The notes under the pieces were generated by a model. It ran no database searches and was not told the DNA's origin. It saw only the letters and a list, made by a program, of their open reading frames with translations. 46,124 nt of DNA from the IMG/VR virus record IMGVR_UViG_2547132255_000002; one strand, given 5' to 3'. Shown here one piece after another: positions 1,419-46,124 of this stretch. Within the stretch, counting starts at the first letter, position 1, and every line of letters starts with the position of its first letter. A program made the translations under genes and the position numbers. The DNA is from a virus. Its lineage: Duplodnaviria; Heunggongvirae; Uroviricota; Caudoviricetes.

Positions 1419-2489
1419 TTATTTGATTTCAATTTTGTCCCACTCCCTGCCTCTGTCATCACGATACTGTGATGCCATGGTGTCCGACTTATGCCCGAGA
1501 AGATGTTGAGCAAACTTATCGCTTATCTGCTTCTCATAGAGTCTTGCAGACAAACTGCGCAACTCGTGAAAGGTTGGCGGATCCCCTTCGAAGGAAAGAC
1601 CTGATGCTTTTCGTGCGCGCATAAAATACCTTGATACTGTGCCGGATGAAAGCGGTTCACGACGAGTAGATGCAATTATGGTTTCTCCGCCAAGAATCTC
1701 TTTGCATTTATCAAGTGTTTCCTTCATTGATATCCCGAGAGCATCAACATGCAATGCTGTTGGGATGGCAATTTTTACGCCTGTTTTGCTTTGCTCGACA
1801 TAAAGATATCCATCTACGATATCAGACCACTTCATTTCGCATAAATCACCAACTCGTTGCCCGGTAACAACAGCCAGTTCCATTGCAAGTCTTAGCCAAT
1901 ATGGTGATGATTCTGCTGCTTGATAAATTTTCAGGTATTCGTCAGCCGTAAGTCTTGATCTCCTTACCTCTGATTTTGCTGCGCGAGTGGCAGCGACCGG
2001 GTTTGTTGTTATATGGCCTTCAGCTATTGCCTCTCGGAATGCATCGCTCAGTGTTGATCTGATTAACTTGGCTGACGCAGCCTTGCCCTCGTCTATGTAT
2101 CCATTGAGCATTGCCGCAATTTCTTTTGTGGTGATGTCTTCAAGTGGAGCATCAGGCAGACCCCTCCTTATTGCTTTAATTTTGCTCATGTAATTTATGA
2201 GAGTCTTCTGCTTGATTCCTCTGCTGGCGAGGATTTTTTCGTAGCGATCAAGCCATGAATGTAACGTAACAGAATTATCACTGTTGATTCTCGCTGTCAG
2301 AGGCTTGTGTTTGTGTCCTGAAAATAACTCAATGTTGGCCTGTATAGCTTCAGTGATTGCGATTCGCCTGTCTCGGCCTAATCCAAACTCTTTACCCGTC
2401 CTTGGGTCCCTGTAGCAGTAATATCCATTGTTTCTTATATAAAGGTTAGGGGGTAAATCCCGGCGCTCATGACTTCGCCTTCTTCCCAT
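1419..2489 (-). CDS. int: Tyrosine integrase, lambda Int
   Basis: 356-aa product MGRRRSHERRDLPPNLYIRNNGYYCYRDPRTGKEF... matches recalled lambda Int over its full length. Confidence 0.97.
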   Translation of the reverse strand: MGRRRSHERRDLPPNLYIRNNGYYCYRDPRTGKEFGLGRDRRIAITEAIQANIELFSGHKHKPLTARINSDNSVTLHSWLDRYEKILASRGIKQKTLINYMSKIKAIRRGLPDAPLEDITTKEIAAMLNGYIDEGKAASAKLIRSTLSDAFREAIAEGHITTNPVAATRAAKSEVRRSRLTADEYLKIYQAAESSPYWLRLAMELAVVTGQRVGDLCEMKWSDIVDGYLYVEQSKTGVKIAIPTALHVDALGISMKETLDKCKEILGGETIIASTRREPLSSGTVSRYFMRARKASGLSFEGDPPTFHELRSLSARLYEKQISDKFAQHLLGHKSDTMASQYRDDRGREWDKIEIK

Positions 2490-28071: not shown

Positions 28072-29490
28072 ATGCCTATTCAGCAACTTCCGCTTATGAA
28101 AGGTGTCGGCAAAGACTTTCGAAACGCCGACTATATCGACTATCTGCCAGTGAATATGTTGGCCACCCCCAAAGAAATCCTCAACAGCAGCGGATATCTT
28201 CGCTCATTCCCGGGCATTGCCAAACGATCTGATGTGAACGGTGTATCTCGCGGCGTCGAGTACAACATGGCGCAGAGTGCTGTTTATCGCGTGTGTGGTG
28301 GCAAACTGTACAAAGGAGAAAGTGAGGTCGGTGATGTTGCCGGAAGTGGTCGCGTATCAATGGCGCATGGTCGGACATCACAGGCGGTAGGCGTTAATGG
28401 TCAACTTATCGAGTATCGCTATGATGGCACGGTTAAAACCGTCTCAAACTGGCCTACAGACAGTGGATTCACGCAGTATGAGTTAGGCTCAGTCCGCGAC
28501 ATTACGCGCTTGCGTGGGCGTTATGCGTGGTCAAAAGACGGCACTGATTCATGGTTTATCACTGACCTTGAAGACGAATCACATCCTGACCGATACAGCG
28601 CACAATATCGTGCCGAGTCTCAGCCTGACGGCATCATCGGTATCGGAACATGGCGAGACTTCATCGTCTGCTTTGGTTCATCGACGATTGAATATTTCTC
28701 CCTGACGGGGGCAACCACCGTTGGTGCCGCTTTGTATGTCGCCCAGCCATCGCTGATGGTGCAGAAAGGCATTGCCGGGACTTACTGCAAAACGCCATTC
28801 TCTGATTCATATGCGTTCATCAGCAATCCGGCAACAGGTGCGCCGTCTGTGTACATCATCGGCTCCGGTCAGGCATCACCAATCGCCAGCGCGAGCATTG
28901 AGAAAATACTACGCTCCTACACTGCTGATGAACTGGCTGATGGCGTGATGGAGTCTCTGCGATTTGATGCGCATGAGTTGCTGATTATTCACCTGCCGCG
29001 CCATGTACTCGTGTACGACGCATCTTCAAGCGCCAATGGTCCGCAATGGTGTGTGTTGAAAACTGGCTTGTATGACGATGTGTACCGCGCTATCGACTTC
29101 ATTTACGAAGGCAATCAGATAACGTGCGGCGATAAGCTGGAATCGGTTACCGGTAAATTGCAGTTCGATATCAGCAGCCAGTATGGTCTTCAACAGGAAC
29201 ATATTTTATATTCTCCTTTAATAAAGGCAGATAACGCTTTAATAAATGACCTTGAATTAGAAACATCGGGCGGCGTGTGTGATAGAATAGATAAAATATT
29301 TATATCAGCCACTACAGATGGAATTAGTTACGGTCGTGAGCAAATGGTCGTATTACAAAAACCATTTGTATATGACAATCGCGTTTTATGGCGAAAAGTT
29401 GGTCGAGTTAGACGCCTCATTGGATTTAAATTCAGAGTTATTGCAAAAGGTCCTGTTACATTATCAGGCCTTTCTATTCGTGTAACATAA
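28072..29490 (+). CDS. Head completion protein (P22 gp10-like)
   Basis: 472 aa, same length as P22 gp10; synteny. Confidence 0.65.
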   Translation: MPIQQLPLMKGVGKDFRNADYIDYLPVNMLATPKEILNSSGYLRSFPGIAKRSDVNGVSRGVEYNMAQSAVYRVCGGKLYKGESEVGDVAGSGRVSMAHGRTSQAVGVNGQLIEYRYDGTVKTVSNWPTDSGFTQYELGSVRDITRLRGRYAWSKDGTDSWFITDLEDESHPDRYSAQYRAESQPDGIIGIGTWRDFIVCFGSSTIEYFSLTGATTVGAALYVAQPSLMVQKGIAGTYCKTPFSDSYAFISNPATGAPSVYIIGSGQASPIASASIEKILRSYTADELADGVMESLRFDAHELLIIHLPRHVLVYDASSSANGPQWCVLKTGLYDDVYRAIDFIYEGNQITCGDKLESVTGKLQFDISSQYGLQQEHILYSPLIKADNALINDLELETSGGVCDRIDKIFISATTDGISYGREQMVVLQKPFVYDNRVLWRKVGRVRRLIGFKFRVIAKGPVTLSGLSIRVT

Positions 29491-29511
29491 ATCGAAACTA
29501 AAGGAGTAGAT

Positions 29512-30056
29512 ATGTTGAGTGAAAACGCAAAAGATATTCCTGGATATGAAGGTTTATATGCCGTAACAGAGGATGGGCGAGTATATTCTCACTCACGTGT
29601 TGTTAAGGCTGCGCATGGCAGCACGCAACTCAGAAAGGGGCGGTGGCTAAAACAACACGAGAATAATAAAGGTTATCTATATTTGCCACTTAGTGTTGAT
29701 GGAGTTAAAGTAAAATGGCTTGTGCATAGGCTTGTCGCTCTTGCTTTCGTCCCCAATCCAGAAGGCAAGCCGTTCATAAATCACATAGATAACAACCGAA
29801 AAATAATAATGCTTCTAATTTAGAGTGGTGTACTCAAAAGGAGAATATGAAGCATTGCTCATCTCAAGGCAGGGTGAAGTTTCCGGCTTTAAAAGGAGAA
29901 AATAATCCAATTTCAAAGCTCTCATATGAGCAAGTAATAGAAATAAAGAAATCAAAGGGAGTTAATCAAAGAGAGCTTGCTAAAAAATACTGTGTCAGTC
30001 AGACGGTGATTCACAATATCCAGTCTGGTAAATCGTGGAGGCATGTTAATGGCTGA
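29512..30056 (+). pseudogene. HNH homing endonuclease (NUMOD4 plus HNH_3), frame broken at an A5 run (29799-29803)
   Basis: Frame 1 gives IPGYEGLYAVTEDGRVYS...FINHIDNNRK then stops; frame 3 continues NNASNLEWCTQKENMKHC...; one extra A would restore HIDNNRKNNNASNLEW. Confidence 0.65.
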
Positions 30057-30897
30057 TTCGAATCTCAACACCCCTGTTATTGTTCAGGCGACGCAGCTCG
30101 ATACATCAATCCTTCCACGCAATATCTTCTCGCAGTCGTATCTGCTTTACGTTATCGCACAGGGTACTGATGTTGGTAACGTGGCGAACAAGGCCAACGA
30201 GGCCGGACAGGGCGCTTATGACGCACAAGTCAGGAACGATGAGCAGGATGTGATTCTCGCTGACCATGAGCAGCGAATTTCTGCTGCGGAAGCAACGCTT
30301 GTTAATCATGAGGAGCGAATCAGCCAGGCAGAATCAACTCTTCAGGAACATGAAACACGAATAGCGCAGAATGAAAGCGATATTGCGTCGCTTGATACCA
30401 GAGTTCAGTCGCTGGAGTCGCAGGTTTCAGACCATGAAACGCGCATTGATGCTCTGGAGTATGCAACCACGCGCAAGAAGTCAGAGGTTGTTTACTCTGG
30501 CGTATCAGTAACCATTCCGACAGCGCCGACCAACCTTGTTAGCCTGCTGAAAACGCTCACGCCGTCATCAGGCTCGTTGGCACCATTCTTCGACACCGTT
30601 AACAACAAGATGGTTGTGTTCAACGAGAACAAAACCCTGCTCTTCAAGTTGTCGATTGTCGGCACGTGGCCCAGCGGAACCTCCAACAGGTCAATGCAGC
30701 TAACCTTTTCCGGCTCTGTTCCTGACACACTGGTAAGCAGTCGCAACTCGGCGACAACAACCGATAACATTCTGTTAGCTACGTTCTTCAGCGTGGATAA
30801 AGACGGCTTTCTTGCCACAAATGGCAGTACGTTAACCATTCAGTCAAATGGTGCGGCGTTTACTGCCACAACCATCAAAATCATTGCGGAGCAGTGA
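30049..30897 (+). CDS. Tail needle (P22 gp26-like) with C-terminal knob
   Basis: [43 protein letters not shown]... matches the P22 gp26 N-terminus; heptad coiled coil; extra ~100-aa C-terminal domain. Confidence 0.85.
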
Positions 30898-31376
30898 TGG
30901 AAATAAAGCTCATCGATAATCCGGTGAAGCTTGCAGAATTCCTCAACAACCCGGCAAACACGGGAAATATCGTAGACAGTGGAGATAAATACTACATCAA
31001 GCCTGATGCGGTATATCTCGGCATCTACGAAGGATTAGTGCTGGCTGGAGTTCATGAAGTGCGCAACTTCTGGCATAGCGTTGTTGAATGCCATGCGGTG
31101 TACGACCCCGGATTCCGTGGTGAATATGCACTGCAAGGGCATCGATTATTCTGCAAATGGCTTCTCGAAAACTCACCATTCCTTAACAGCATCACCATGG
31201 TTCCTGACACAACGAAATACGGACGGGCAATTATCCGTTTGCTTGGCGCTACCCGTGTTGGTCACCTTGATGATGCTTATACCAGCAATGGAAAGCCTGT
31301 AGGCATCACGATTTATCAGTTACCGCGCTCAAAATACGAGGAGCTAAAGAATGTTAATTTTCCAGATTGCCAATAA
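30894..31376 (+). CDS. P22 gp14-like protein
   Basis: 160 aa; synteny between needle and gp7-like gene. Confidence 0.55.
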
Positions 31377-31609
31377 GCACCTCAGCAAAGCTGTGTACTG
31401 CAAAGGTGGCAGTGATAGCGGTTCAAAGGCACAGGCACGCGCAACTGAAAAGGGCATCGAATTGCAGCGTGAAATGTGGCAGACGAACATGCAAAACCTT
31501 GCACCGTTCACGCCACTCGCTCAGCAGTACGTATCACAGTTGCAAAATCTTTCCTCTCTTCAGGGGCAAGGTCAGGCGCTTAACCAGTATTACAACTCCC
31601 AGCAGTACA

Positions 31610-33563
<1,954 letters not shown>

Positions 33564-33978
33564 GTACAAAGACCTTGCAGGTCAGGCGCGTTACCAGAGT
33601 CTGGCAGCAGCAGAGGCAACGGGTGGATTAGGCTCTACAGCAACAGGAAACCAGTTAGCAGCAATCGCACCTACACTCGGTCAAAACTGGCTGTCAGGTC
33701 AGATGAACAACTACAACAATCTGGCAAACATTGGCCTTGGTGCTCTTACAGGTCAGGCAAATGCCGGACAGACCTATGCAAACAATGCCAGTCAGTTGTA
33801 TCAACAGCAGGCAGCAGCAGTCGCAGCAAATGCCAACCGACCATCTACAGGTCAGAAATTGATTGGTGGAATAGGTTCTGGTGCTGCTATTGGTGGCAGT
33901 GTTGGTGGTCCATGGGGAGCAGCAATTGGTGCAGGTGTAGGTGCTCTCGGCTCTCTTCTTTACTGATGGAGGTGAACA

Positions 33979-35361
33979 GTGGCAACTTGGCAACAGAGCA
34001 TCAACTCCGGTGGTTTTCTGGCTGGAATTGGTGCGCAAAATGAGAATGCGCCAAAGGCGAGTGATGTAAATGAGACACTGGCTTACATTCGTCAGAATAA
34101 TGAGGATGCCAGGCTTGGTCGCAACAATATCGGTCTGCAGGCTCTGCAGGGAATAACAAGCACAATGCAAGGATTGCAGCAATATGATCAGCAGAAGCAA
34201 GAGGCAGCATTCAGAAAGGATTATGCTTCTGCTATTCAATCAGGTGATCGACAGCAGGTTCGAGATCTGATGACCAAATATCCTGGTCAATTAGAGAAGA
34301 TTCAGTCTGGTATGAAGTGGGCAGACGAAGACCAGCGCAATTCTATCGGCACCTTAGCGGCTGGCGCACGACTTGCAGCCTCGTCTCCAGAAGCAATGCA
34401 ATCATGGCTGCAAAACAACGCCAAGGAACTGACTCGCGTCGGTGTTGACCCTAATAACGTTGCTCAGATGTATCAGCAGAATCCTTCAGGATTTGGTGAG
34501 TTTGTTGATCACCTTGGAATGTCAGCGCTTGGTCCTAATGATTATTTCAATGTTCAGGACAAGATGGCTGGTCGTGAGATTGACCGAGGCAGGCTGGCAG
34601 AGACAATCCGCAGCAATCAGGCTGGCGAGGCACTTCAGGCGAGAGGGCAAAACCTTTCCTATCAGTCAGCAATGACTGGACACGGACTTGCAGCAGAAAG
34701 ACTGGCACTTGATAAGCAGAAATTCGGTTTTGAAGTACAACAGGCACAAAAGAAGGCCGATGAACTTATTAATGCTGCGCCAAAACTATCCGTGAACATG
34801 GAAAAGGCTATAGAAAAATCAGCAGGTGATGCGGCAGCTAGTCGTAATGCTGCCGATTCAATGACAACGCTTGCTGACACGCTGGAGAAGGAGAAGCCAA
34901 CTCCTGGTTTGTTCGGTAACGCTGAAAATATGTTCACTAAGCTTACGGGGCAAGATAACTACCTCCGAGATATGCGGATTAGATTCAACCAACTAGCCAA
35001 TGCGCAGGCAACCAAGCTTCTCCCTCCCGGCCCTGCATCAGATAAGGATATTGAGTTTGCAAGGAAAGGCATTCCAAGCGAAACGGATAATCCAATGGTC
35101 ATGGCTCGATGGTTAAGGGGTATGGCAAAAATGGAAAGTAATAACGCGAAGTTCAACGAGTTTAGGTCAGAGTGGATGAGTGCAAATGGCAGCCCAGGAC
35201 AATCTGATCGCAACCGAAACATCATGGGGATGGATGTTAAGAAGGGTGAATCATTGAACTCTGCGGCAAAACGTTTTCTTTCCTCAAGTTATGGCGATAG
35301 CCAACCTCAACAGCAATTGTCCGATGACGAATTAATTAGCAAATATCTCGGAGGGCAGTAA
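33979..35361 (+). CDS. Ejection protein (P22 gp20-like)
   Basis: 460 aa from GTG with RBS GGAGGT; synteny and size. Confidence 0.65.
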
Positions 35362-37481
35362 TGGCCTATAGTCGTGAACAGTTGATGACGGCGTTAAGGA
35401 ATGCTGATGCTGCCGGCGATACTGAGGGAGCACGTCGCATTGCTCAGATGCTGTCTTCTGGTGATCAATCCACTCAAAACCAATCGCAGCCAGAAGAACA
35501 ATCTCTGGTGGGAAAAGCTACTAACTGGCTCACTGGTGGTCAAAGTGCAGGGCAAATTGCAGAACAGGCTGGTCGTGGTCTGGTAAACATACCATTTGAC
35601 GTATTGCAGGGTGGCGCAAGTCTGATTAATGCAATCAGTCAGGGGCTTGGTGGCCCCAAGGTTTTGGATGATGTTTATCGCCCAGTAGACAGACCTACAG
35701 ACCCCTACGCGCAAGCCGGTGAAACTATTGGTGGGTATCTCCTGCCAATTGGCACAGCGGCAAAAGCTGCTGGAGCGCCAGCAAAGCTCGCTGAAGATAT
35801 CGGTTCCGCAGGAAACATGATTGCAGGTTCTCTTGCTGATGCTGCAAATCAGGAGGGCGACTTTGCACAAAATGCTGCCATTAACGGTGGTATCAATATT
35901 GGTGCTCAGGGGATACTTTCTGGGGCTGGAAGGATCTTAACCTCTAAATCACCTCAAGCTCTTGGTGGCGGGGCAATAAATTCCGCTGCTGATGTTTCGA
36001 AAATGGCAAAGTCTGGTACAGGAAGAGAGATTATTGCCAGACAGTCAGCTAACGTGTCAGACGAAATAGCAAAAGCAGCAGATACTGCTGGAATAGATAT
36101 CAACGCATTAACTCCTGGCATGAGATCAGGTAGTCGTGGTCTTGCTCAGGCAGAGGGGATTCTGGCGTCAAAGCCCGGAATTACACAGGATGCACATACC
36201 AAAGCATTCAGTGAAATAGAGTCGAAATTTAACTCAGCATTGGATGAGTTTGGGGCTGAAGCAGGAACTGCATCAGAAAAAAGTGCAGCCATAAAACAAA
36301 GGGTTTTGGCAAGTATTGATAAAATGAAAAATTCAGAAAAGGCCGCATGGGATAGCGTCCGCTCCACGATGCCTGACGCAAAGGCCAGAATGTCAAATCT
36401 GAACGCTACAATTCAGGGTGATATTTTGGCTGGCATGCCGCTAACTCCTGAGATGAAACAATTCGCATCTGCTTATGCTAAAACTGGTAAAAAAGGAATC
36501 ACGTTTGATGCCATGAAGGCATGGCGAAGTAAACTTGCTGACGCAGAGCAGAAGTATATAAGGTCTGGTGAGGCAAATACGGCAAGGCGAATGGCTGAGC
36601 TTCGTGATGCAGCAACGGAAGATATGCGCATAATGGCTCAAAATGGCGGTTTTCTTGATGACTGGCAAAAAGCTAATGATCTGTCAAAGGCAAGATTTAC
36701 AGCACAAGAACAGGCTGAAGCAGCGTTTGGTAGAGACCTTGCAACTGATCAGTTGGTAACTAATGGCTCTAAGGCGTTACAGGGTTCAGCAAAAAGTGGA
36801 ACAGGTCAGTTCCATAAAATAATAAGCGCCCTACCTGAGTCGGAACGCGCGCCAGCAATTGCGTCAATATTACAAGATGCAATGTCGCAAGGGGTACGCG
36901 GAGGTAAGTCTGAAGAGGCTGGAATTAAGCATATCGCGACTATTCTTACCCCACAAAACGTGAAGGCAATTAGTCGATATTCTCCAGAACTTGGCAGGAT
37001 TACAAGTTCATACGGAGAACTTGCACGAGCAGCAACAAAGCCACTTCGATATGTTGAACAGACAGGGCGATCTATGCCAGCCATTAGCACTCTTGAGAAT
37101 GGCCTTCATCCAGTTTTAGAGAGCGCATTGTCTGGCGCTTTTAGAACTACTGGCACTATCGCAGGGTTCTCTGGAGGAGGCGTTATTGGAGCAATAGCGG
37201 GTGGCGCTGCAGGTGGAGCAATTGATGCAATGGCAAAAGGAGCGATAGCGAAATTATCCGCAACTAGAAGCGGTCGTTACGCTATTGAAAAGGCTGTTCA
37301 AGAGGCAACAAAGGCCGTTAAGGTTGGGGCAAGTGATGGTGCATTAGCGGCGGCGGAACGCAGATTTATGGCAAATAAGGCCGCCGTAAAAGCAATACGT
37401 GATGCAGTCGGAAACGAAGAGTTTCAGCGCTTAGCGAGGGCTGGTATTGTGGCATCGCTAAGCGGAATGGCACAGGAGTAA
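35361..37481 (+). CDS. Ejection protein (P22 gp16-like)
   Basis: 706 aa, Gly/Ala-rich; start overlaps gp20 stop (TAATG); synteny. Confidence 0.6.
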
Positions 37482-37810
37482 TCAATCATCCATGGATGGA
37501 TTGAGCTTATCTCGTGTTGATGTGGCAATTTTCCCAACATTTTTCAACCAAGATTTTAAGAAGGATATGTCGTCCTTAATATCATGAATATCCTCATTCT
37601 TTATACGATCAACCTTATCCTCTAGGCTCTCTATAGAACGCTCAATGCTAGACAGAGAGATTTTTAAGTCTCCTTGCTCACGTTCCAGTGAGGATTTGAG
37701 AGCACAATATTCGTTTTCTAGAATTCCTATTTTTTTGTTAGAGAGTGCATTCGATACTCATACACCAAACCAGAAACGACTAATGCAGCCAACAGAAACC
37801 ATTCAAGCAC
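37482..37810 (-). pseudogene. Small membrane-anchored coiled-coil protein, frame broken at an A7 run
   Basis: Minus strand: RBS AAGGAGG, GTG, TM helix VLEWFLLAALVVSGLVYEY, then stop at the A-run; the next frame continues IGILENEYCALKSSLEREQGDLK... to 37482 with no start of its own. Confidence 0.45.
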
Positions 37811-37870
37811 ACCAACCTCCTTAGTTTTGAGCAGGATACCAGATGATAATGTGTAGTTGGAGTAGCGCGG

Positions 37871-37965
37871 TTGTAATGCAAGCATTTTGTTTTGGTTTTA
37901 TGCTTGCTTGTATGTGTGTACAGTGTATATAATGCAAGCATATATCGCAACAAGGTGCTTGCATT
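37871..37965 (+). promoter_or_regulatory. Repeat-structured leader/promoter with four alternating TGCAAGCA / TGCTTGCA elements
   Basis: ATGCAAGCAT (37876), ATGCTTGCTT (37900), ATGCAAGCAT (37932), GTGCTTGCAT (37956, overlapping the start codon); TATATAAT at 37925-37932. Confidence 0.5.
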
Positions 37966-38952
37966 ATGACAGAAAAGAAAAGTAGTGAAGGGAAAGCTAA
38001 GGGCGGGATCGCTCGCGCAAAGTCGCTGACTAAAGAGCAGCGTTCTGAAATAGCAAAGAAAGCAGCGGCAAAACGATGGGAAGGTAAGCCACTAAGAGCG
38101 ATTAGAAAGGGTAACTTCATTGATGATTTCGGCATTGATGCAGAATGTTACGTACTTGATGATAATGATAAAACGGTTGTAGTTAGTAAAACTGGTCTGG
38201 CTAAATTACTAGGAATCGGTGAGCATGGTAGGGATGTAGACCGTTTTCTAAATACGAATTATATGGCTGATTTTGTCGATCCATTTTTGCTAGAAAAATT
38301 CAAAAAACCTCTTATTTTTCAATGGAGAAGTCCGGTCCCAAACTCAGCCCCAAATCCACTCGCTGATGAGGCTCACGGTTACGATATTGCCCTTATCGGT
38401 GATATAGCCACAGCAATGATTAATGCCGATCGAGCTGGCGCTCTACCGCCTTCAAGATCAAAATCTGCCAGCCTTGCCCAAAGACTTGTTACCGCATCAA
38501 TGAAAGCAGGGCTTAAAGGACTTGGTTATGCTATTGCAGGATATCGACCTGAAGTACAGGAGGTTATTGATTCCTTCAAGGCCTTTGTTCGTGAAGAGGC
38601 GAGGCAGTATGAAAAAGAATTTCCAGATGAGCTATATGAGGAGTGGTATCGACTGTACGGCCTGAACAGGCCAGAGAAGGGACGTCCAATTCGTTTTGGG
38701 CAGCTAACCAACATGCAGATATACACTCCGCTAGCAAAGAGTAAAGGTAAAATCCTTGAACAGATTCGAGCCAGCCGAGACGAGAACGGAAAACAATCTG
38801 ATAAGTTGCACCTGTTCCTTTCTGAAATTGGTGTCAAGGCTTTGCGTCAGCATATCGGTAAGCTTCTTGGTGTCGCAGCGATGAGCGAGACAAGAGAAGA
38901 ATACGAAAAAGGAATAGAAAAGGTTTTTGGAAGAATAAAACCAGAAATCTAA
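37966..38952 (+). CDS. Hypothetical protein (possibly P63C-like) in the sieA-equivalent slot
   Basis: 328 aa; basic N-terminus KGGIARAKSLTKEQRSEIAKKAAAKRW; family assignment is a weak recollection. Confidence 0.55.
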   Translation: MTEKKSSEGKAKGGIARAKSLTKEQRSEIAKKAAAKRWEGKPLRAIRKGNFIDDFGIDAECYVLDDNDKTVVVSKTGLAKLLGIGEHGRDVDRFLNTNYMADFVDPFLLEKFKKPLIFQWRSPVPNSAPNPLADEAHGYDIALIGDIATAMINADRAGALPPSRSKSASLAQRLVTASMKAGLKGLGYAIAGYRPEVQEVIDSFKAFVREEARQYEKEFPDELYEEWYRLYGLNRPEKGRPIRFGQLTNMQIYTPLAKSKGKILEQIRASRDENGKQSDKLHLFLSEIGVKALRQHIGKLLGVAAMSETREEYEKGIEKVFGRIKPEI

Positions 38953-38967
38953 TTAAAAAACCCACCT

Positions 38968-39222
38968 TCAGGTGGGTTTTTTATCTTCTCCGTACATGCT
39001 GCTGAGAGTCTTTAGAAGAGCCTCCCTAAATTTTTCAGATTCTTGTTGAGCAAAACCTTCTATTGTTCTTGGTGATTTTTCTTCATCAATAGCAGCTTGC
39101 AAGATCATAACTATTTCTGAATTTAATGAGCGTCCGTTTTTCGATGCTCTTATGGTCAGGTCGCGCTTGAGGCTATCTGGCATTCTTACGCTATATGGGG
39201 CTATGTCTCTAACCTTCGTCAT
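38968..39222 (-). CDS. mnt: Mnt-like ribbon-helix-helix repressor
   Basis: 84 aa; RMPDSLKRDLTIRASKNGRSLNSEIVMILQ resembles P22 Mnt (RMPMEVREKLKFRAEANGRSMNSELLQIV). Confidence 0.8.
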   Translation of the reverse strand: MTKVRDIAPYSVRMPDSLKRDLTIRASKNGRSLNSEIVMILQAAIDEEKSPRTIEGFAQQESEKFREALLKTLSSMYGEDKKPT

Positions 39223-39331
39223 ACTTACACCGTGATAATCACATTGATATCACAGTGTATTCAAAAAAATTTTGACTTGATATACTCACGGTGATATGTT
39301 TGTGATTCACAATAACTCACGTGGTGGCAAT
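39223..39331. promoter_or_regulatory. Divergent mnt/arc promoter-operator region
   Basis: Palindromic elements GTGATAATCAC, TGATATCA, GGTGATATG, GTGATTCAC; TTGACT -35-like hexamer. Confidence 0.55.
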
Positions 39332-39484
39332 ATGGAAAAAGAAGTTAGCAGAATTTTGGTGAGAATGCCTCAGTCGCTAAAAGATGCGATTACTGGAAAG
39401 GCCAAAGAAGAATGCCGGTCGTTTAACTCGGAAGTGATTAAGCGATTGCTGGACAGCCTGAAGAGAGAGGGGGTAGTGGTATGA
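39332..39484 (+). CDS. arc: Arc-like ribbon-helix-helix repressor
   Basis: 50 aa MEKEVSRILVRMPQSLKDAITGKAKEECRSFNSEVIKRLL, RHH beta-strand motif as in P22 Arc. Confidence 0.75.
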   Translation: MEKEVSRILVRMPQSLKDAITGKAKEECRSFNSEVIKRLLDSLKREGVVV

Positions 39485-39672
39485 AAAACCGCAGATGTTG
39501 TTTTTGTGGGTGTAGTAAAGAAACGACTGGCAGGGGCTTTGTTGTGTCAAAAAATACCGAAGAAGCAATTTGTGACTCATGCGTTACAGATATTGTTATT
39601 TTCATGCATGGCGAGAAGGGGTTAGATGAAAAGCTAGAGAGTATTCCAGTTGAAGGCGCTGATAAAAGTTGA
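39481..39672 (+). CDS. Small Cys-rich protein (putative zinc ribbon)
   Basis: 63 aa with CCFCGC...CDSC; start overlaps arc stop (ATGA). Confidence 0.5.
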   Translation: MKNRRCCFCGCSKETTGRGFVVSKNTEEAICDSCVTDIVIFMHGEKGLDEKLESIPVEGADKS

Positions 39673-39734
39673 AGCCCCAACTGCTGTAACAGTCAGGGCT
39701 TCGGTTGTCGGTAAATCCTTGGAGAAAAACCAAC

Positions 39735-40637
39735 ATGAATAGTATAGCAATTTTAGAAGCAGTGAACACCTCTTACGTGCCTTTCAATGGTCAGCAGATT
39801 TTAACCGCTGTGGCTGCCGGAGTGACTTATGTAGCGATGCGTCAAATTGTGGAAAACATTGGTATAGACTGGACTGGTCAATCTGTTAAGTTGCGTAAAA
39901 TGAAGGACAAATTCAACTGTAGAGATATCTCTATGGTTGCCGCTGATGGCAAGTTACGTAAGCTTTTATGCATACCGCTGAAGAAACTCAATGGATGGCT
40001 GTTCAGCATCAACCCTGAGAAAGTTCGTGCTGACATCCGTGATAAACTGATTCAGTACCAGGAGGAATGCTTTAGCGTGCTGCATGACTACTGGACGAAG
40101 GGAAAGGCAGAAAATGCACGTAAGAAAACATCTGTTGATGACAGGACTCCGCTTCGTGATGCTGTAAATATGCTAGTCAGCAAAAAGCATCTAATGTACC
40201 CAGAAGCTTATGCAATGATTCATCAGCGTTTCAACGTGGAAAGTATTGAAGAGCTTGATGCATCTCAGATACCGCAAGCCGTAGAGTACATCCACAGGGT
40301 AGTGCTTGAAGGTGAATTCATCGGCAAACAAGAGAAGAAAGCAAACGAGCTTTCTGCAAAAGAAGCAAACAGTCTTGTATGGTTATGGGATTATGCCAAC
40401 CGCTCACAGGCATTATTCCGCGAACTGTATCCGGCGCTAAAACAAATTCAATCGAACTATTCCGGCAGATGCTACGACTACGGTCATGAGTTCTCGTATG
40501 TTATCGGAATGGCGAGAGATGTTTTAATTAATCACACACGAGATGTTGATATCAATGAGCCAGACGGACCAACGAATCTTTCCGCATGGATGAGACTTAA
40601 GAATAAAGAATTACCTCCTTCAGTACATAACTACTGA
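39735..40637 (+). CDS. ant: Antirepressor Ant-like protein
   Basis: ~300 aa after arc, as in P22 immI; ATG 39735 has a GGAG RBS (ORF opens at TTG 39705). Confidence 0.7.
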
Positions 40638-40656
40638 CAGATAACCAACGCAACGA

Positions 40657-40679
40657 CCCAGCTTCGGCTGGGTTTTTTT
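40657..40679 (+). terminator. Intrinsic terminator after ant
   Basis: CCCAGC-ttcg-GCTGGG hairpin followed by TTTTTTTA. Confidence 0.8.
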
Positions 40680-40737
40680 ATGCCCAAAATTCACCGTAGC
40701 CATGCTGCGGCGATTCCTTGCATCTGGAGCAAATTAA

Positions 40738-43683
40738 ATGACAGACATTACAGCCAATGTTGTGGTAAGCATGCCTTCGCAACTCTTCACTATGGCGCGT
40801 TCTTTTAAAGCCGTAGCCAATGGCAAAATTTATATCGGTAAAATTGACACTGACCCGGTAAATCCTGAAAACCAGATTCAGGTTTATGTGGAGAACGAAG
40901 ACGGTTCTCACATTCCTGTTTCGCAACCAATAATGATTAACGCTGCTGGATATCCGGTATATAACGGACAGATTGCCAAATTCGTAACCGTGCAAGGCCA
41001 TTCTATGGCTGTTTATGATGCGTATGGTACACAGCAGTTCTATTTTCCTAATGTGCTGAAGTATGATCCTGATCAGTTACGGCAGCAATTAGAAGACCCA
41101 GATGGAGCGAATAAATACCCAAAACTTCAGATAGCAAGATGGAGAGACAGTTATGATGTAAGAGGTTGGGGGGCTATTGGTGATGGTGTTCATGATGATA
41201 CATCAGCTCTATCAGAATTACTTTCTGTTGCAACAGGTGGTGAAAAGATAGATGGGCGAGGGCTTACTTTTAAAGTATCAACTCTTCCAGATGTCAGTCG
41301 ATTTAAAAATGCTCGTTTTTTATTTGAGAGAATACCGGGTCAGCCTCTTTTTTATGCTTCTGAAGATTTTATCCAGGGAGAGTTATTTAAAATTACAGAT
41401 ACACCGTGGTACAACGCCTGGACGCAGGATAAAACGTTTGTATATGACAATGTCATCTATGCGCCTTTTATGGCTGGAGACCGCCATGGTGTAAATAACC
41501 TCCATGTTGCATGGGTTCGCTCAGGAGATGACGGGAAGACCTGGACAACGCCGGAATGGCTTACAGATTTACATGAAAACTATCCCACAGTTAACTATCA
41601 CTGCATGAGTATGGGGGTTGTCAGAAATCGCCTTTTTGCTGTAATTGAGACGCGGACCGTGAGCGGAAATAAACTGCAGGTTGCAGAGTTGTGGGATCGC
41701 CCAATGAGTCGCAGCCTTCGCGTTTATGGTGGTATAACGAAAGCAGCAAATCAGCAAGTCGCTTATATTCGCATTACTGATCACGGATTATTTGCTGGTG
41801 ATTTTGTCAACTTCTCAAACTCTGGTGTTACAGGTGTTACCGGGAATATGACGGTGACTACTGTTATTGATAAAAATACTTTTACAGTTACGACGCAAAA
41901 TACCCAGGATGTGGATCAGAATAACGAGGGTAGATACTGGAGTTTTGGTACATCATTTCACTCGTCACCATGGAGAAAAACCAGTCTTGGAACTATTCCT
42001 TCTTTTGTTGACGGAAGCACTCCTGTTACTGAGATTCATAGTTTTGCGACGATTAGCGATAACAGTTTTGCTGTTGGCTACCATAATGGTGATATTGATC
42101 CACGTGAGCTTGGGATACTCTATTTCTCTGATGCTTTCGGTTCTCCTGGTAGCTTTGTTCGCAGACGCATACCTGCAGAATATGAGGCGAATGCATCTGA
42201 GCCATGTGTAAAATATTATGATGGCATTCTGTATCTGACGACCAGGGGGACATTAAGTACTCAACCCGGTAGTTCATTGCACAGAAGCTCTGATTTAGGT
42301 ACATCATGGAATTCTCTTCGCTTCCCAAATAATGTTCATCACTCAAACCTTCCTTTTGCCAAAGTTGGCGATGAGCTGATTATTTTTGGCAGTGAGCGCG
42401 CATTTGGTGAGTGGGAAGGAGGAGAACCTGATAACCGTTATGCAGGAAATTATCCAAGAACATTTATGACCAGAGTTAACGTCAATGAGTGGAGTCTGGA
42501 TAATGTAGAGTGGGTTAATGTTACTGATCAGATTTATCAGGGCGGAATAGTTAACTCTGCGGTTGGTGTTGGTTCAGTTTGTATCAAAGACAACTGGCTG
42601 TACTACATTTTCGGTGGGGAAGACTTTCTAAACCCATGGAGCATAGGGGATAACAACAGAAAATATCCTTATGTTCACGATGGTCACCCGGCTGATTTGT
42701 ATTGTTTCAGGGTGAAAATTAAACAGGAAGAATTTGTTTCAAGGGATTTTGTCTACGGAGCCACTCCTAACAGAACGCTTCCTACTTTTATGTCGACGTC
42801 AGGCGTGAGGACGGTTCCTGTACCCGTTGATTTCACAGATGATGTTGCCGTCCAGTCACTGACTGTCCATGCAGGTACATCAGGACAAGTTCGCGCGGAA
42901 GTCAAACTTGAGGGTAATTACGCCATTATTGCGAAGAAAGTACCGTCTGATGATGTTACCGCTCAGAGATTAATCGTTAGCGGAGGTGAAACAACGTCTT
43001 CAGCAGATGGTGCAATGATAACGTTGCATGGTTCCGGAAGCAGTACTCCACGTCGCGCGGTATATAACGCACTCGAACATCTTTTTGAGAACGGAGATGT
43101 TAAACCTTATCTTGATAATGTAAATGCTCTTGGTGGTCCGGGAAACAGGTTCTCGACAGTTTATCTTGGCTCCAATCCTGTGGTTACCAGTGACGGAACA
43201 TTAAAGACAGAGCCGGTCTCTCCTGACGAAGCATTGCTGGATGCCTGGGGTGACGTCAGGTATATCGCTTATAAATGGCTGAACGCTGTCGCTATAAAGG
43301 GGGAAGAAGGGGCGAGGATACATCATGGTGTAATCGCGCAGCAACTTCGTGATGTTCTTATTTCTCACGGACTCATGGAAGAAGAAAGCACAACATGCCG
43401 CTATGCCTTTCTTTGCTATGACGATTATCCCGCAGTATATGATGACGTCATTACTGGCCAAAGGGAAATGCCGCTGACTGATAATGACGGGAGCATCATT
43501 GTTGATGAGGATGATAATCCAGTGATGGTAATGGAAGACATCATTGAGCGCGTTGAAATAACGCCAGCAGGATCTAGATGGGGGGTCAGACCTGATCTCT
43601 TATTCTATATCGAGGCAGCATGGCAGCGCAGAGAAATAGAAAGAATAAAAGCTAGGTTAGACTTAATAGAAGGGAAGCACTAA
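40738..43683 (+). CDS. Tailspike: P22 gp9-like head-binding domain, endosialidase-like receptor domain, C-terminal intramolecular chaperone
   Basis: N-terminal ~115 aa ([43 protein letters not shown]...) match P22 gp9; two Asp-boxes SGDDGKTW and SSDLGTSW; ~160-aa C-terminal tail after a TSD site. Confidence 0.8.
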
Positions 43684-44303: not shown

Positions 44304-44318
44304 GCTTTTTTATACTAA
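44304..44318. other. attR common core (P-O-B' junction)
   Basis: GCTTTTTTATACTAA followed by host B' sequence cttgagcgaaacgggaaggtaaaaag. Confidence 0.9.
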
Positions 44319-44408
44319 CTTGAGCGAAACGGGAAGGTAAAAAGACAAAAAGTTGTTTTTAATACCTTTAAGTGATACCAGATGGCATTGCGCCATCTGG
44401 CAGAGTGA

Positions 44409-44885
44409 TTAACTAAACATCGCAGTAATCGAGGCACTCGCCAGAGAGTGAAAATGAACGTTAAACCCGACCATCGCGCCGCTGGCACCTTCATCGACAT
44501 CAATACGTTCTACATCCAGCGCGTGAACGGTAAAAATGTAGCGATGGGTTTCGCCTTTCGGCGGCGCTGCGCCATCGTACCCGGTTTTACCAAAGTCGGT
44601 ACGCGTCTGCAAAACGCCGTCTGGCATAGCTACCAGACCAGAGCCAAACCCTTGCGGTAATACGCGGGTATCAGCGGGTAAATTAACAACTACCCAGTGC
44701 CACCAGCCGGAGCCGGTTGGCGCATCCGGGTCATAGCAGGTGACAACAAAACTTTTCGTTCCCGCAGGAACATCATCCCACGCCAGATGCGGTGAAATAT
44801 TATCGCCATCGTAACCCATGCCGTTAAAGACATGACGATGCGGCAGCTTATCGCCATCGCGCAGATCGTTACTGATGAGTTTCAT
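44409..44885 (-). CDS. ybhB: Host PEBP-family protein YbhB
   Basis: 158-aa ORF adjacent to attR on the bio side of lambda attB; PEBP-like motifs (DPDAP, HRY). Confidence 0.75.
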   Translation of the reverse strand: MKLISNDLRDGDKLPHRHVFNGMGYDGDNISPHLAWDDVPAGTKSFVVTCYDPDAPTGSGWWHWVVVNLPADTRVLPQGFGSGLVAMPDGVLQTRTDFGKTGYDGAAPPKGETHRYIFTVHALDVERIDVDEGASGAMVGFNVHFHSLASASITAMFS

Positions 44886-44993
44886 TAGAATGCCTCCGGG
44901 AAACCTCGGCCTTCAGACCGGGGAGGAAAGGAGGCGGTTTTCCGACTAACTGTACTTTGCATAATCACATTTTCCTCTTTAGTATGTGAACAC

Positions 44994-46124
44994 ATGAAAC
45001 GCGCATATAAATACCGGTTTTACCCGACAACTGAGCAGGCTGAGCTTTTAGCTCAGACGTTTGGCTGTGTGCGCTTCGTCTACAATTCCATCCTTCGTTG
45101 GCGTACCGATGCGTACTACGAGCGAAAAGAAAAGATCGGTTATCTACAGGCCAACGCTCGCCTTACGGCGCTCAAAAAAGAGCCTGAATACATATGGCTG
45201 AATGATGTTTCCTGCGTTCCCCTCCAGCAGTCGTTGCGCCACCAACAAGCCGCCTTTGCTAACTTCTTTGCCGGACGAGCTGCATATCCGGCTTTCAAAA
45301 GCAAACGGCACAAACAGGTGGCTGAGTTCACTGCCAGCGCGTTTAAACACCGTGACGGCGAGTTGTATATAGCAAAGAGCAAGTCGCCGCTGGATGTTCG
45401 CTGGAGTCGAGAATTACCATCTGCGCCGTCAACCGTTACCATTTCCAGAGATAGCGCTGGCAGGTACTTTGTTTCCTGCCTGTGTGAGTTTGAACCTGTA
45501 TCAATGCCTGTTACCGCTAAAACGGTCGGCATTGATGTGGGCTTAAAAGATTTATTCGTCACCGATACCGGATTCAAAACCGACAATCCCCGCCACACCG
45601 CTAAATATGCGAAGCGATTAACGCTGCTACAGCGACGTTTAAGCAGGAAGCAAAAAGGCTCAAGAAACCGAATTAAAGCCCGCTTAAAGGTCGCCCGACT
45701 CCACGCGAAAATCGCCGATTGCCGGATGGACAATCTGCACAAGTTGTCCCGCAAACTGATTAACGAAAACCAAGTTGTTTGCGTCGAATCCCTCAAGGTG
45801 AAAAACATGATCCGCAACCCGAAGCTGTCTAAAGCAATAGCTGACGCAGGCTGGAGCGAACTTGTTCGCCAGCTCCAGTACAAAGGCAAATGGGCCGGGC
45901 GGTCAGTGGTCGCCATTGACCAGTATTTACCGTCCTCAAAATGCTGTAGTTGCTGCGGTTTCACCATGCAAAAAATGCCTCTTAATGTTCGTAAATGGCA
46001 CTGCCCTGAATGCGGCGCAGACCATGATCGCGACATTAACGCGGCACGTAATATTAAAGCTGCCGGGCTGGCAGTGTTAGCCCACGGAGAGCCTGTAAAC
46101 CCTGAATCGCAGCACGCGGCTTAG
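44994..46124 (+). CDS. tnpB: IS200/IS605-family TnpB (OrfB) RuvC-like nuclease, no adjacent TnpA
   Basis: 376 aa; N-terminus MKRAYKYRFYPTTEQAELL typical of OrfB/TnpB; C-terminal zinc finger CCGFTMQKMPLNVRKWHCPECGADHDRDINAARNI. Confidence 0.8.
   Translation: MKRAYKYRFYPTTEQAELLAQTFGCVRFVYNSILRWRTDAYYERKEKIGYLQANARLTALKKEPEYIWLNDVSCVPLQQSLRHQQAAFANFFAGRAAYPAFKSKRHKQVAEFTASAFKHRDGELYIAKSKSPLDVRWSRELPSAPSTVTISRDSAGRYFVSCLCEFEPVSMPVTAKTVGIDVGLKDLFVTDTGFKTDNPRHTAKYAKRLTLLQRRLSRKQKGSRNRIKARLKVARLHAKIADCRMDNLHKLSRKLINENQVVCVESLKVKNMIRNPKLSKAIADAGWSELVRQLQYKGKWAGRSVVAIDQYLPSSKCCSCCGFTMQKMPLNVRKWHCPECGADHDRDINAARNIKAAGLAVLAHGEPVNPESQHAA

Follow-up and report, generated by a model that had tools for sequence, protein, structure and literature searches.

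The window analysed here is a stretch of 46,124 nt from a Caudoviricetes virus record (IMG/VR IMGVR_UViG_2547132255_000002), and it ends with a tnpB-like gene that stands beside ybhB. The locus raises the question of what kind of element is represented by a tnpB gene with no transposase gene next to it, and why this element sits exactly where it does. On the first point, we hold with considerable confidence that it is a complete, non-autonomous element of the IS200/IS605 family (IS, insertion sequence) and the IS1341 group, very probably ISEc42, which encodes TnpB and its ωRNA (omega RNA) only. On the second point, a pattern of placement at start codons was found among its relatives.

A solo tnpB element between ybhB and bioA

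The 376-aa open reading frame (ORF) starts with ATG and closes with TAG, on the final triplet of the window, and a gap of 108 bp (44886-44993) separates it from ybhB on the opposite strand (Table 1). The product was tested against the TnpB domain set (NCBIfam NF040570; Pfam PF12323, PF01385 and PF07282; HTH/WED-REC, RuvC and zinc-ribbon (TNB) parts). It matched, in this order, HTH_OrfB_IS605, OrfB_IS605 and Cas12f1-like_TNB at 76.8, 91.3 and 82.4 bits, all above cut-off; the guided_TnpB model NF040570 was matched at 369.5 bits (cut-off 100), and the IS200_TnpB model NF038281 at 400 bits, slightly below its cut-off of 425. The neighbouring gene matched NCBIfam PRK10257 (343.8 bits, cut-off 226) and Pfam PBP. 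These coordinates and profile matches bear out an earlier note on this DNA, which had described a TnpB-type ORF 108 bp from ybhB with no tnpA in the gap. When a Y1 transposase probe (IS200 TnpA, validated as PF01797 at 131 bits) was used, no tblastn match was obtained anywhere in the window, even at E ≤ 10; tnpA is thus absent from the gap and also upstream, downstream and elsewhere in the window.

Many complete Escherichia coli chromosomes match 44400-46124 at 100% identity, and through them the sequence was followed past the window end. The next gene downstream of tnpB is bioA, which ends 110 bp past the tnpB stop. In strain PAR (locus L001) the gene order is ybhC, ybhB, tnpB, bioA and bioB, and tnpB is labelled 'RNA-guided endonuclease InsQ/TnpB family protein' by the Prokaryotic Genome Annotation Pipeline (PGAP). 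A tnpA immediately downstream, which the earlier note had named as a ground for rejection, is not there; bioA follows instead. The arrangement is that of the IS1341 group, in which tnpB stands alone with no Y1 match within the element, and not that of the IS605 group, in which a Y1 HUH gene adjoins tnpB.

The exact boundaries were obtained by comparing filled and empty sites. The empty site of K-12 and of the B2 strain IHE3034 reads ...GAGTTTCAT followed directly by GAACCCTCCTTTCTTG..., with TTTCAT joined straight to GAACCCTCC, whereas the carrier site reads ...GAGTTTCAT, then the element (TAGAATGCCTCC...GGGGAGCCGTCAA), then GAGCCCTCCTTTCTTG..., that is, TTTCAT, 1291 bp and GAGCCCTCC. No target-site duplication was found in this comparison. 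The element of 1291 bp (44886-46176) is composed of a 108-nt left end (LE), tnpB and a further 52 nt that lie outside the window; TTCAT precedes it, and it ends in TCAA. As the earlier note had supposed, the 3' end was out of sight, and the downstream extension that it had suggested revealed, by way of the identical genomes, both the right end (RE), 52 nt beyond the window end, and a conserved RNA structure.

The same boundaries were recognised in relatives, which were sampled at 79 loci from species-representative genomes and at 79 from metagenomes. At 67 mapped sites the left flank ends in the motif T-[C/T]-A-[T/C]; the right boundary is sharp in 35 relatives, in which unrelated DNA, unique to each locus, comes after ...GTCAA. 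The ends are of the type with subterminal imperfect hairpins on both sides and without terminal inverted repeats. In the nested LE hairpin the outer stem is GCCTCC (44892-44897) with GGAGGC (44930-44935) and the inner stem CCTCGG (44904-44909) with CCGGGG (44918-44923). An alignment of 22 LEs, including that of IS609, contained 12 pairs, of which 7 showed compensatory changes. The RE hairpin CCCCGTC/GGGCGGGG folds, and it also covaries in relatives.

Two further observations were made on the LE. Among the 22 LEs, the type of transposon-adjacent motif (TAM) covaries with the bases that flank the inner hairpin: TCAT goes with GGGAAA/GAGAAA...AGGAAAG, and TTAT/TTAC with GTAAGA/GTAAAG...ATATAAG. 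In IS608, TnpA reads its target by means of base-pairing to the LE, and the covariation is as would be expected if a TnpA read the target in a similar way here; a general IS608-like pairing rule was rejected, because no single register fits all clades in the LE alignment. In addition, a sigma-70-like site (TTCACA, 18-nt spacer, TG-GATTAT) lies on the minus strand at 44961-44990 (4562-4591 in L001) and faces out of the LE toward ybhB. It is weak (two sites found against 1.2 expected), poorly conserved in relatives and not relied on.

The ybhB-tnpB arrangement was found in 342 of 5426 complete E. coli genomes, and the junction between right end and flank in exactly 342. The carriers, among them CFT073, ABU 83972, E2348/69 and F11, have a single copy each, and all the copies examined are situated between ybhB and bioA; the copies are at least 99% identical in 333 genomes, and one is frameshifted. 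A survey of TnpB elements in 2467 E. coli genomes (Supplementary Table S1) placed ISEc42 in the IS1341 group, with a TnpB of 376 aa, a length of 1294-1295 bp, the cleavage motifs TCAT (left) and TCAA (right), and 165 copies in 164 genomes. The present element agrees with it in the 376-aa TnpB, the length of about 1.29 kb, the lack of tnpA, both motifs, the single copy and the occurrence in a minority of strains, and no difference was detected on these features. There are also reports of ISEc42 from mobile-element finders, in B2-ST1193 isolates and, as the nearest match, in Endozoicomonas, where many relatives were found here too. The element is therefore of an ordinary, already known kind and in itself of small import: solo tnpB elements make up the majority of tnpB genes, only about 25% of which have a tnpA nearby (Meers et al. 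2023), and this one is catalogued, correctly named by PGAP at NCBI and surveyed in E. coli, none of which the earlier note had recognised.

It is highly improbable that the element descends from an IS605-type element (tnpA and tnpB) from which tnpA was deleted. IS609 of K-12 (insQ/yncK) lends some colour to such a decay, since it has the same end architecture (left TTTAT followed by ...AAAACCCCATCCTTCAGGGCGGGGATATAAGG, right ...GGAGGATGTCAA), can be aligned with the LE family and has, beside its tnpB, a degraded tnpA, the yncK pseudogene. However, the LE of the present element is just 108 nt long with its boundary and hairpins intact, and the validated Y1 probe matches nothing in the window. 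The examined enterobacterial, Zobellella and Pseudomonas relatives are all solo, with LEs of 102-132 nt and no Y1 gene within 3 kb. Moreover, the survey left out elements with Y1 remnants longer than 20 bp and still classed ISEc42 in the IS1341 group. Apart from its tnpA, IS609 differs in its TnpB (only 33% identical), its TAM (TTTAT) and an LE without a Shine-Dalgarno (SD)-like motif. At the IS609 locus (L087, 4162-5909), the nested hairpin and ...GTCAA are present as in the ISEc42-like element.

TnpB, its predicted ωRNA and a proposed mode of persistence

TnpB residues 3-369 align with the solved ISDra2 TnpB (8exa/8h1j) at E = 9e-75. The RuvC triad D181/E265/D347 falls on D191, E278 and D361 of ISDra2, which form the catalytic centre according to the structure paper (PMC10097598), and a CCCC zinc finger is kept, with C318/C321/C337/C340 aligned with the zinc-finger cysteines of ISDra2. 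The catalytic residues are all retained across genera at 62-90% protein identity; a lack of RuvC residues, which the earlier note had weighed as an objection, was thus not found. Other classes were considered and rejected. Type V CRISPR-Cas12f/C2c8 was excluded by low scores (Cas12f2 49.5 bits, cut-off 450; C2c8 89.9 bits, cut-off 350), and there is no room for a CRISPR array, because only 108 bp and 110 bp separate tnpB from ybhB and bioA. The TldR class of nuclease-dead repressors was ruled out by the intact RuvC triad together with the intact LE and RE. An antisense ORF of 298 aa (45140-46036, minus strand) is not a gene but a by-product of codon usage, given that several relatives have this frame broken down to 78-209 aa.

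For the ωRNA, the last 200 nt of 22 elements (from Enterobacterales, Zobellella, Pseudomonas and one metagenome-assembled genome, MAG) were aligned. The RNAalifold consensus contained 35 pairs, 19 of which were paired through changes on both sides. When this structure was held fixed, 96.2% of the cells paired, as against 37-46% when the partners were slid by 1-3 columns, and none of 500 shuffles reached the observed covariation score. The bases of the ISDra2-type pseudoknot are invariant among the relatives. The last ~118 nt of the element are thus predicted to form a covariation-supported scaffold, in line with the guide-like RNA that the earlier note had thought possible at the 3' end. Past the window end come the remaining 52 nt of the scaffold with the right-end hairpin ...GGGGAGCCGTCAA, followed by a predicted 16-nt guide, GAGCCCTCCTTTCTTG, which is the bioA-side flank at positions equivalent to 46177-46192 (5778-5793 in L001). 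The size is comparable to that of the ISDra2 ωRNA, which has a 116-nt scaffold and a 16-nt guide (PMC10097598). Besides the homology over the full length of TnpB with the same RuvC triad and zinc finger, the element shares with ISDra2 a 5-nt TAM and an ωRNA drawn from the tnpB 3' end and the right end (~116-118-nt scaffold, 16-nt flank guide); ISDra2 differs in being autonomous, with its own tnpA, and in its TAM, TTGAT.

A mode of persistence may be proposed from what is established for the IS200/IS605 family, including IS608/ISDra2 and the elements of Geobacillus stearothermophilus (Karvelis 2021; Meers 2023). A Y1 TnpA provided in trans would cut out the top strand and close TTCAT onto the flank; the TnpB-ωRNA complex would recognise TTCAT and the 16-nt flank in the resealed joint and cut it; recombination with the sister copy would then restore the element. 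Without a cognate TnpA acting, the E. coli copy would stay static. An IS609-type TnpA is a plausible trans-mobiliser because the ends of IS609 and of the element share their architecture, and IS609 may be the source of such an enzyme. Among the tnpB/iscB elements of G. stearothermophilus, most copies lack tnpA and are mobilised in trans, the TAMs are TTCAT/TTTAT, and TnpB cuts the donor joint so that the element is retained (Meers et al. 2023); those elements are multicopy, whereas the E. coli element is single-copy and static, and a start-codon preference was not reported there.

Several observations weigh against a complete ISEc42 element that is equipped in this way. A search of the element against Rfam at E ≤ 1 returned no matching family, only a chance snoRNA match. 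Single-sequence DNA and RNA folds were sensible and no better than shuffles (z = -0.2 to -1.2), so the support for the ωRNA and the hairpins comes from covariation and not from folding energies. In the promoter scan, no sigma-70-like site was found on the tnpB strand. All 342 E. coli copies occupy one site, with no sign of movement within E. coli. The name ISEc42, very probable as it is, was given by a match of features (length, TnpB size, cleavage motifs and copy number) and not by sequence identity. Finally, guide position 3, close to the TAM, is G in carriers and A in the common empty allele; the guide mismatches that allele because the flank there is GAA, not GAG. Carriers have GAG in the flank; empty strains closely related to them have GAA, as do almost all the remaining E. 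coli genomes. The exact joint of TTCAT with GAG in the empty state was found in one of 5426 genomes, with flanks ~97.5% identical to carrier flanks; at this identity the joint was attributed to an independent single-nucleotide polymorphism, and its interpretation as a precise-excision allele was rejected.

An inert relic, that is, an element intact only through recent insertion whose TnpB and ωRNA are neither made nor active in E. coli, appears improbable. Such a relic would fit the single copy at one site, where at least 99% identity in 333 genomes makes within-species conservation uninformative, as well as the frameshifted copy and the uncalled plus-strand promoter. The catalytic residues kept at 62-90% identity across genera and the ωRNA pairs kept by compensatory changes argue against it, and near-identical copies at differing Serratia and Pseudomonas sites show that the family still moves. 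We find it very hard to credit that this TnpB has been domesticated to serve the host, whether by RNA-guided regulation in the manner of TldR or by acting as a barrier to incoming DNA with the empty allele, such as λbio-type transducing DNA. Several E. coli lineages share the fixed chromosomal position, the native SD region of ybhB is antisense to the guide, and the element lies ~580 bp from the λ att core, adjoining the λ attachment site with a prophage in the window, all of which would suit a host function. The RuvC triad is nevertheless intact, unlike that of TldR, and the full transposon ends are kept; the guide is plain flank, as for any IS605-family copy, and it mismatches the common empty allele at the TAM-proximal position 3.

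Placement at start codons and a Shine-Dalgarno-like motif in the left end

The element, read as a solo ISEc42-like insertion, directly abuts the ATG of ybhB, since the CAT of its TAM, read on the opposite strand, provides the start codon of ybhB. It lies precisely at the join of 5'UTR and ATG of this divergent gene, a placement shared by most relatives with a TCAT TAM. The exact seating on ybhB had been missed by the earlier note. The insertion parts ybhB from its native AAGGAGGG, now 1.3 kb off beyond the right end. On the ybhB strand the LE reads ...CCCGGAGGCATTCTA immediately before ATG, with GGAGG 7 nt before the start codon. It is this insertion-site pattern, rather than the element itself, that deserves follow-up.

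For the relatives, boundaries were assigned by automatic comparison with a library of curated ends, and sites that duplicated one another were merged on the basis of their flanks, not of phylogeny. Among 33 distinct TCAT-type sites, 28 had enough flank to be judged, and at 24 of them the CAT serves as the ATG for an opposite-strand ORF of at least 100 codons (exceptions at loci L028, L061, L106 and L158). When the empty sites are reconstructed, the ORF usually has no earlier start than this ATG, a stop being located 0-28 codons upstream, and the ATG is usually preceded by an SD-like motif at about -5 to -15. Several of the abutting ORFs have N-termini that resemble signal peptides. True starts were identified by annotation for ybhB, by PGAP for a nucleoside triphosphate (NTP) pyrophosphohydrolase of a P1-like plasmid, whose start is the base adjoining the left end, and by curated models for NAD kinase (nadK, matched over 1-292 of 292), lipopolysaccharide heptosyltransferase III, a major facilitator superfamily transporter and, at two sites, F-type TrbC. 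The background is much lower: 924 ATGA sites in the same flanks were open for at least 100 codons in 23.7% of cases (p = 7e-12) and were first starts in 3.8% (p = 1e-17). Under a null of selection only, with insertion at non-disruptive sites, start sites account for 18 of 115, or 16% (p about 5e-16). These nulls are rough. The placement at start codons is a statistical pattern in the sites compared; its cause is discussed below.

The LE motif was also counted across the family. An SD-like motif 6-8 nt from the junction was present in 27 of the 33 TCAT-type LEs, and in 26 of the 27 it is a 5-mer such as GGAGG, GGGGG or GAGGG. None of the 34 TTAT/TTAC-type LEs has such a motif. The six TCAT-type LEs that lack it belong to a Zobellella/Pseudomonas/Ferrimonas clade and to L136; the LE-encoded SD is a clade feature and hence has few independent origins. 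Portable motifs of these forms (GGAGG, GGGGG or GAGGG, 6-8 nt from the junction) may take over initiation, and with the replacement SD in the LE of the enterobacterial clade the host gene probably continues to be translated and the insertion can be tolerated.

Taken together, these counts lead us to propose, tentatively and with the balance close to even, that ISEc42-family elements with a TCAT motif seek start codons, either landing at a divergent ATG or being kept almost only there, that the enterobacterial LE serves as a portable SD and that the guides are directed against ribosome-binding sites. In the enterobacterial clade, every ωRNA guide would be antisense to the native ribosome-binding region of the host gene as a consequence of the start-codon placement. 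The common anti-SD-like content of the guides could bias the next insertion; R-loop-assisted targeting is pure speculation. Two features of the data count against the proposal: most host ORFs in the start-codon statistics are predictions and not annotations, and some sites may share ancestry, the two trbC sites possibly being one old event. No description of the start-codon placement or of an LE-encoded SD was found in the searchable literature, including that on ISEc42, the search being incomplete.

Alternatively, the association could be an artefact of retention, in which insertion at TCAT is random and copies needed for host translation are harder to lose. We regard this as less likely than not. 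In its favour, most sampled copies are single and old, and because of the LE-encoded SD a loss of the element would harm the gene next to it, nadK in L126 being an example. Yet copies that are 98.6-99.8% identical and occupy different places in one genome or sample were at start codons in 7 of 8 cases, so an insertion preference is favoured over slow retention alone. Neutral intergenic TCAT sites outnumber start sites by about 5:1 in the same flanks and are rarely occupied, and the Zobellella/Pseudomonas clade is found at start codons without any LE-encoded SD.

If the elements do target start codons, or survive there, and bring their own ribosome-binding site, this would explain their low-cost persistence without a transposase of their own. 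They would then change the signals by which genes are translated, both ordinary genes and essential ones such as nadK, and their ωRNA guides would form a natural class aimed at regions of translation initiation. A conceptual likeness exists to IStrons (IS605/IS607-type elements with a group I intron), which likewise lower the cost of landing in host genes; they splice out of the host mRNA, whereas the E. coli element stays clear of the coding sequence and takes the place of the ribosome-binding site.

A different arrangement was seen at the TTAT/TTAC-type sites. At 8 of ~29 of them (including L019, L049, L050, L054, L079 and L131), the opposite strand has a TAA, 1 nt away from the junction, which terminates an ORF of 100 codons or more that comes from the right flank. 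The RE read backwards (TTGAC) would yield NNT-TGA and so preserve this right-flank ORF. A preference of these relatives for stop codons was rejected, the 8 sites of ~29 being suggestive and not significant.

Feature coordinates, surrounding prophage and other relatives

Table 1. Positions in the window of the element, its parts and the adjoining gene
Feature	Position	Strand	Basis or remark
ybhB, kinase-inhibitor/PEBP family	44409..44885	-	PRK10257, Pfam PBP, RefSeq annotation; host gene, ATG abuts element
TAM TTCAT	44881..44885	+	filled/empty comparison; CAT 44883-44885 forms the start codon of ybhB (minus strand)
Left end (LE), 108 nt	44886..44993	+	similarity stops sharply left of 44886 in 20+ relatives
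LE nested imperfect hairpin	44892..44935	+	DNA fold and covariation
LE-encoded Shine-Dalgarno-like GGAGG	44893..44897	-	sequence, empty-site comparison, family-wide count; replaces native AAGGAGGG
tnpB, RNA-guided endonuclease (predicted), 376 aa	44994..46124	+	Pfam/NCBIfam and ISDra2 alignment
RuvC codons D181, E265, D347	45534-45536, 45786-45788, 46032-46034	+	ISDra2 alignment
ωRNA scaffold (predicted), 5' part	46059..46124	+	~118 nt in total (46059-46176), overlaps tnpB 3' end

The λ att core GCTTTTTTATACTAA occurs in two exact copies, at 1331-1345 and 44304-44318 (0.01 expected by chance), with ~43 kb between them. From this duplication, the window is read as running from ybhC through a prophage that entered at attB-λ to ybhB and, last, ISEc42. 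An integrase of λ type, which has an arm-binding domain, is located at 1422-2489 (minus strand). The part of the prophage at 24000-43683 carries P22/HK620/Sf6-like morphogenesis genes, with 96-97% identity over parts, and a P22 antirepressor-like gene lies at 39705-40634. In the tailspike (40738-43683, 981 aa), a P22-type head-binding domain is fused to an endosialidase (K1 capsule depolymerase), which is complete, and to a chaperone domain of the S74 type.

A solo copy with 81% identity was found on the 97-kb E. coli plasmid pMB9880_2 (L003, 2891-4185). This copy occurs in ~43 P1-like phage-plasmids, near the genes for lysozyme, ssb and a 6.7-kb N6-methylase; it also abuts the start codon of its neighbour, the NTP pyrophosphohydrolase, and a truncated copy is present in plasmid L005. 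In Endozoicomonas (L035-L079, from MAG OZ246962.1 and its relatives), one chromosome contains at least 15 copies with 62-68% identity. Their TAM is TTTAC/TTTAT, and an extra stem-loop is inserted in the ωRNA region. A Y1 tnpA stands beside other TnpB elements in L059 and L080.

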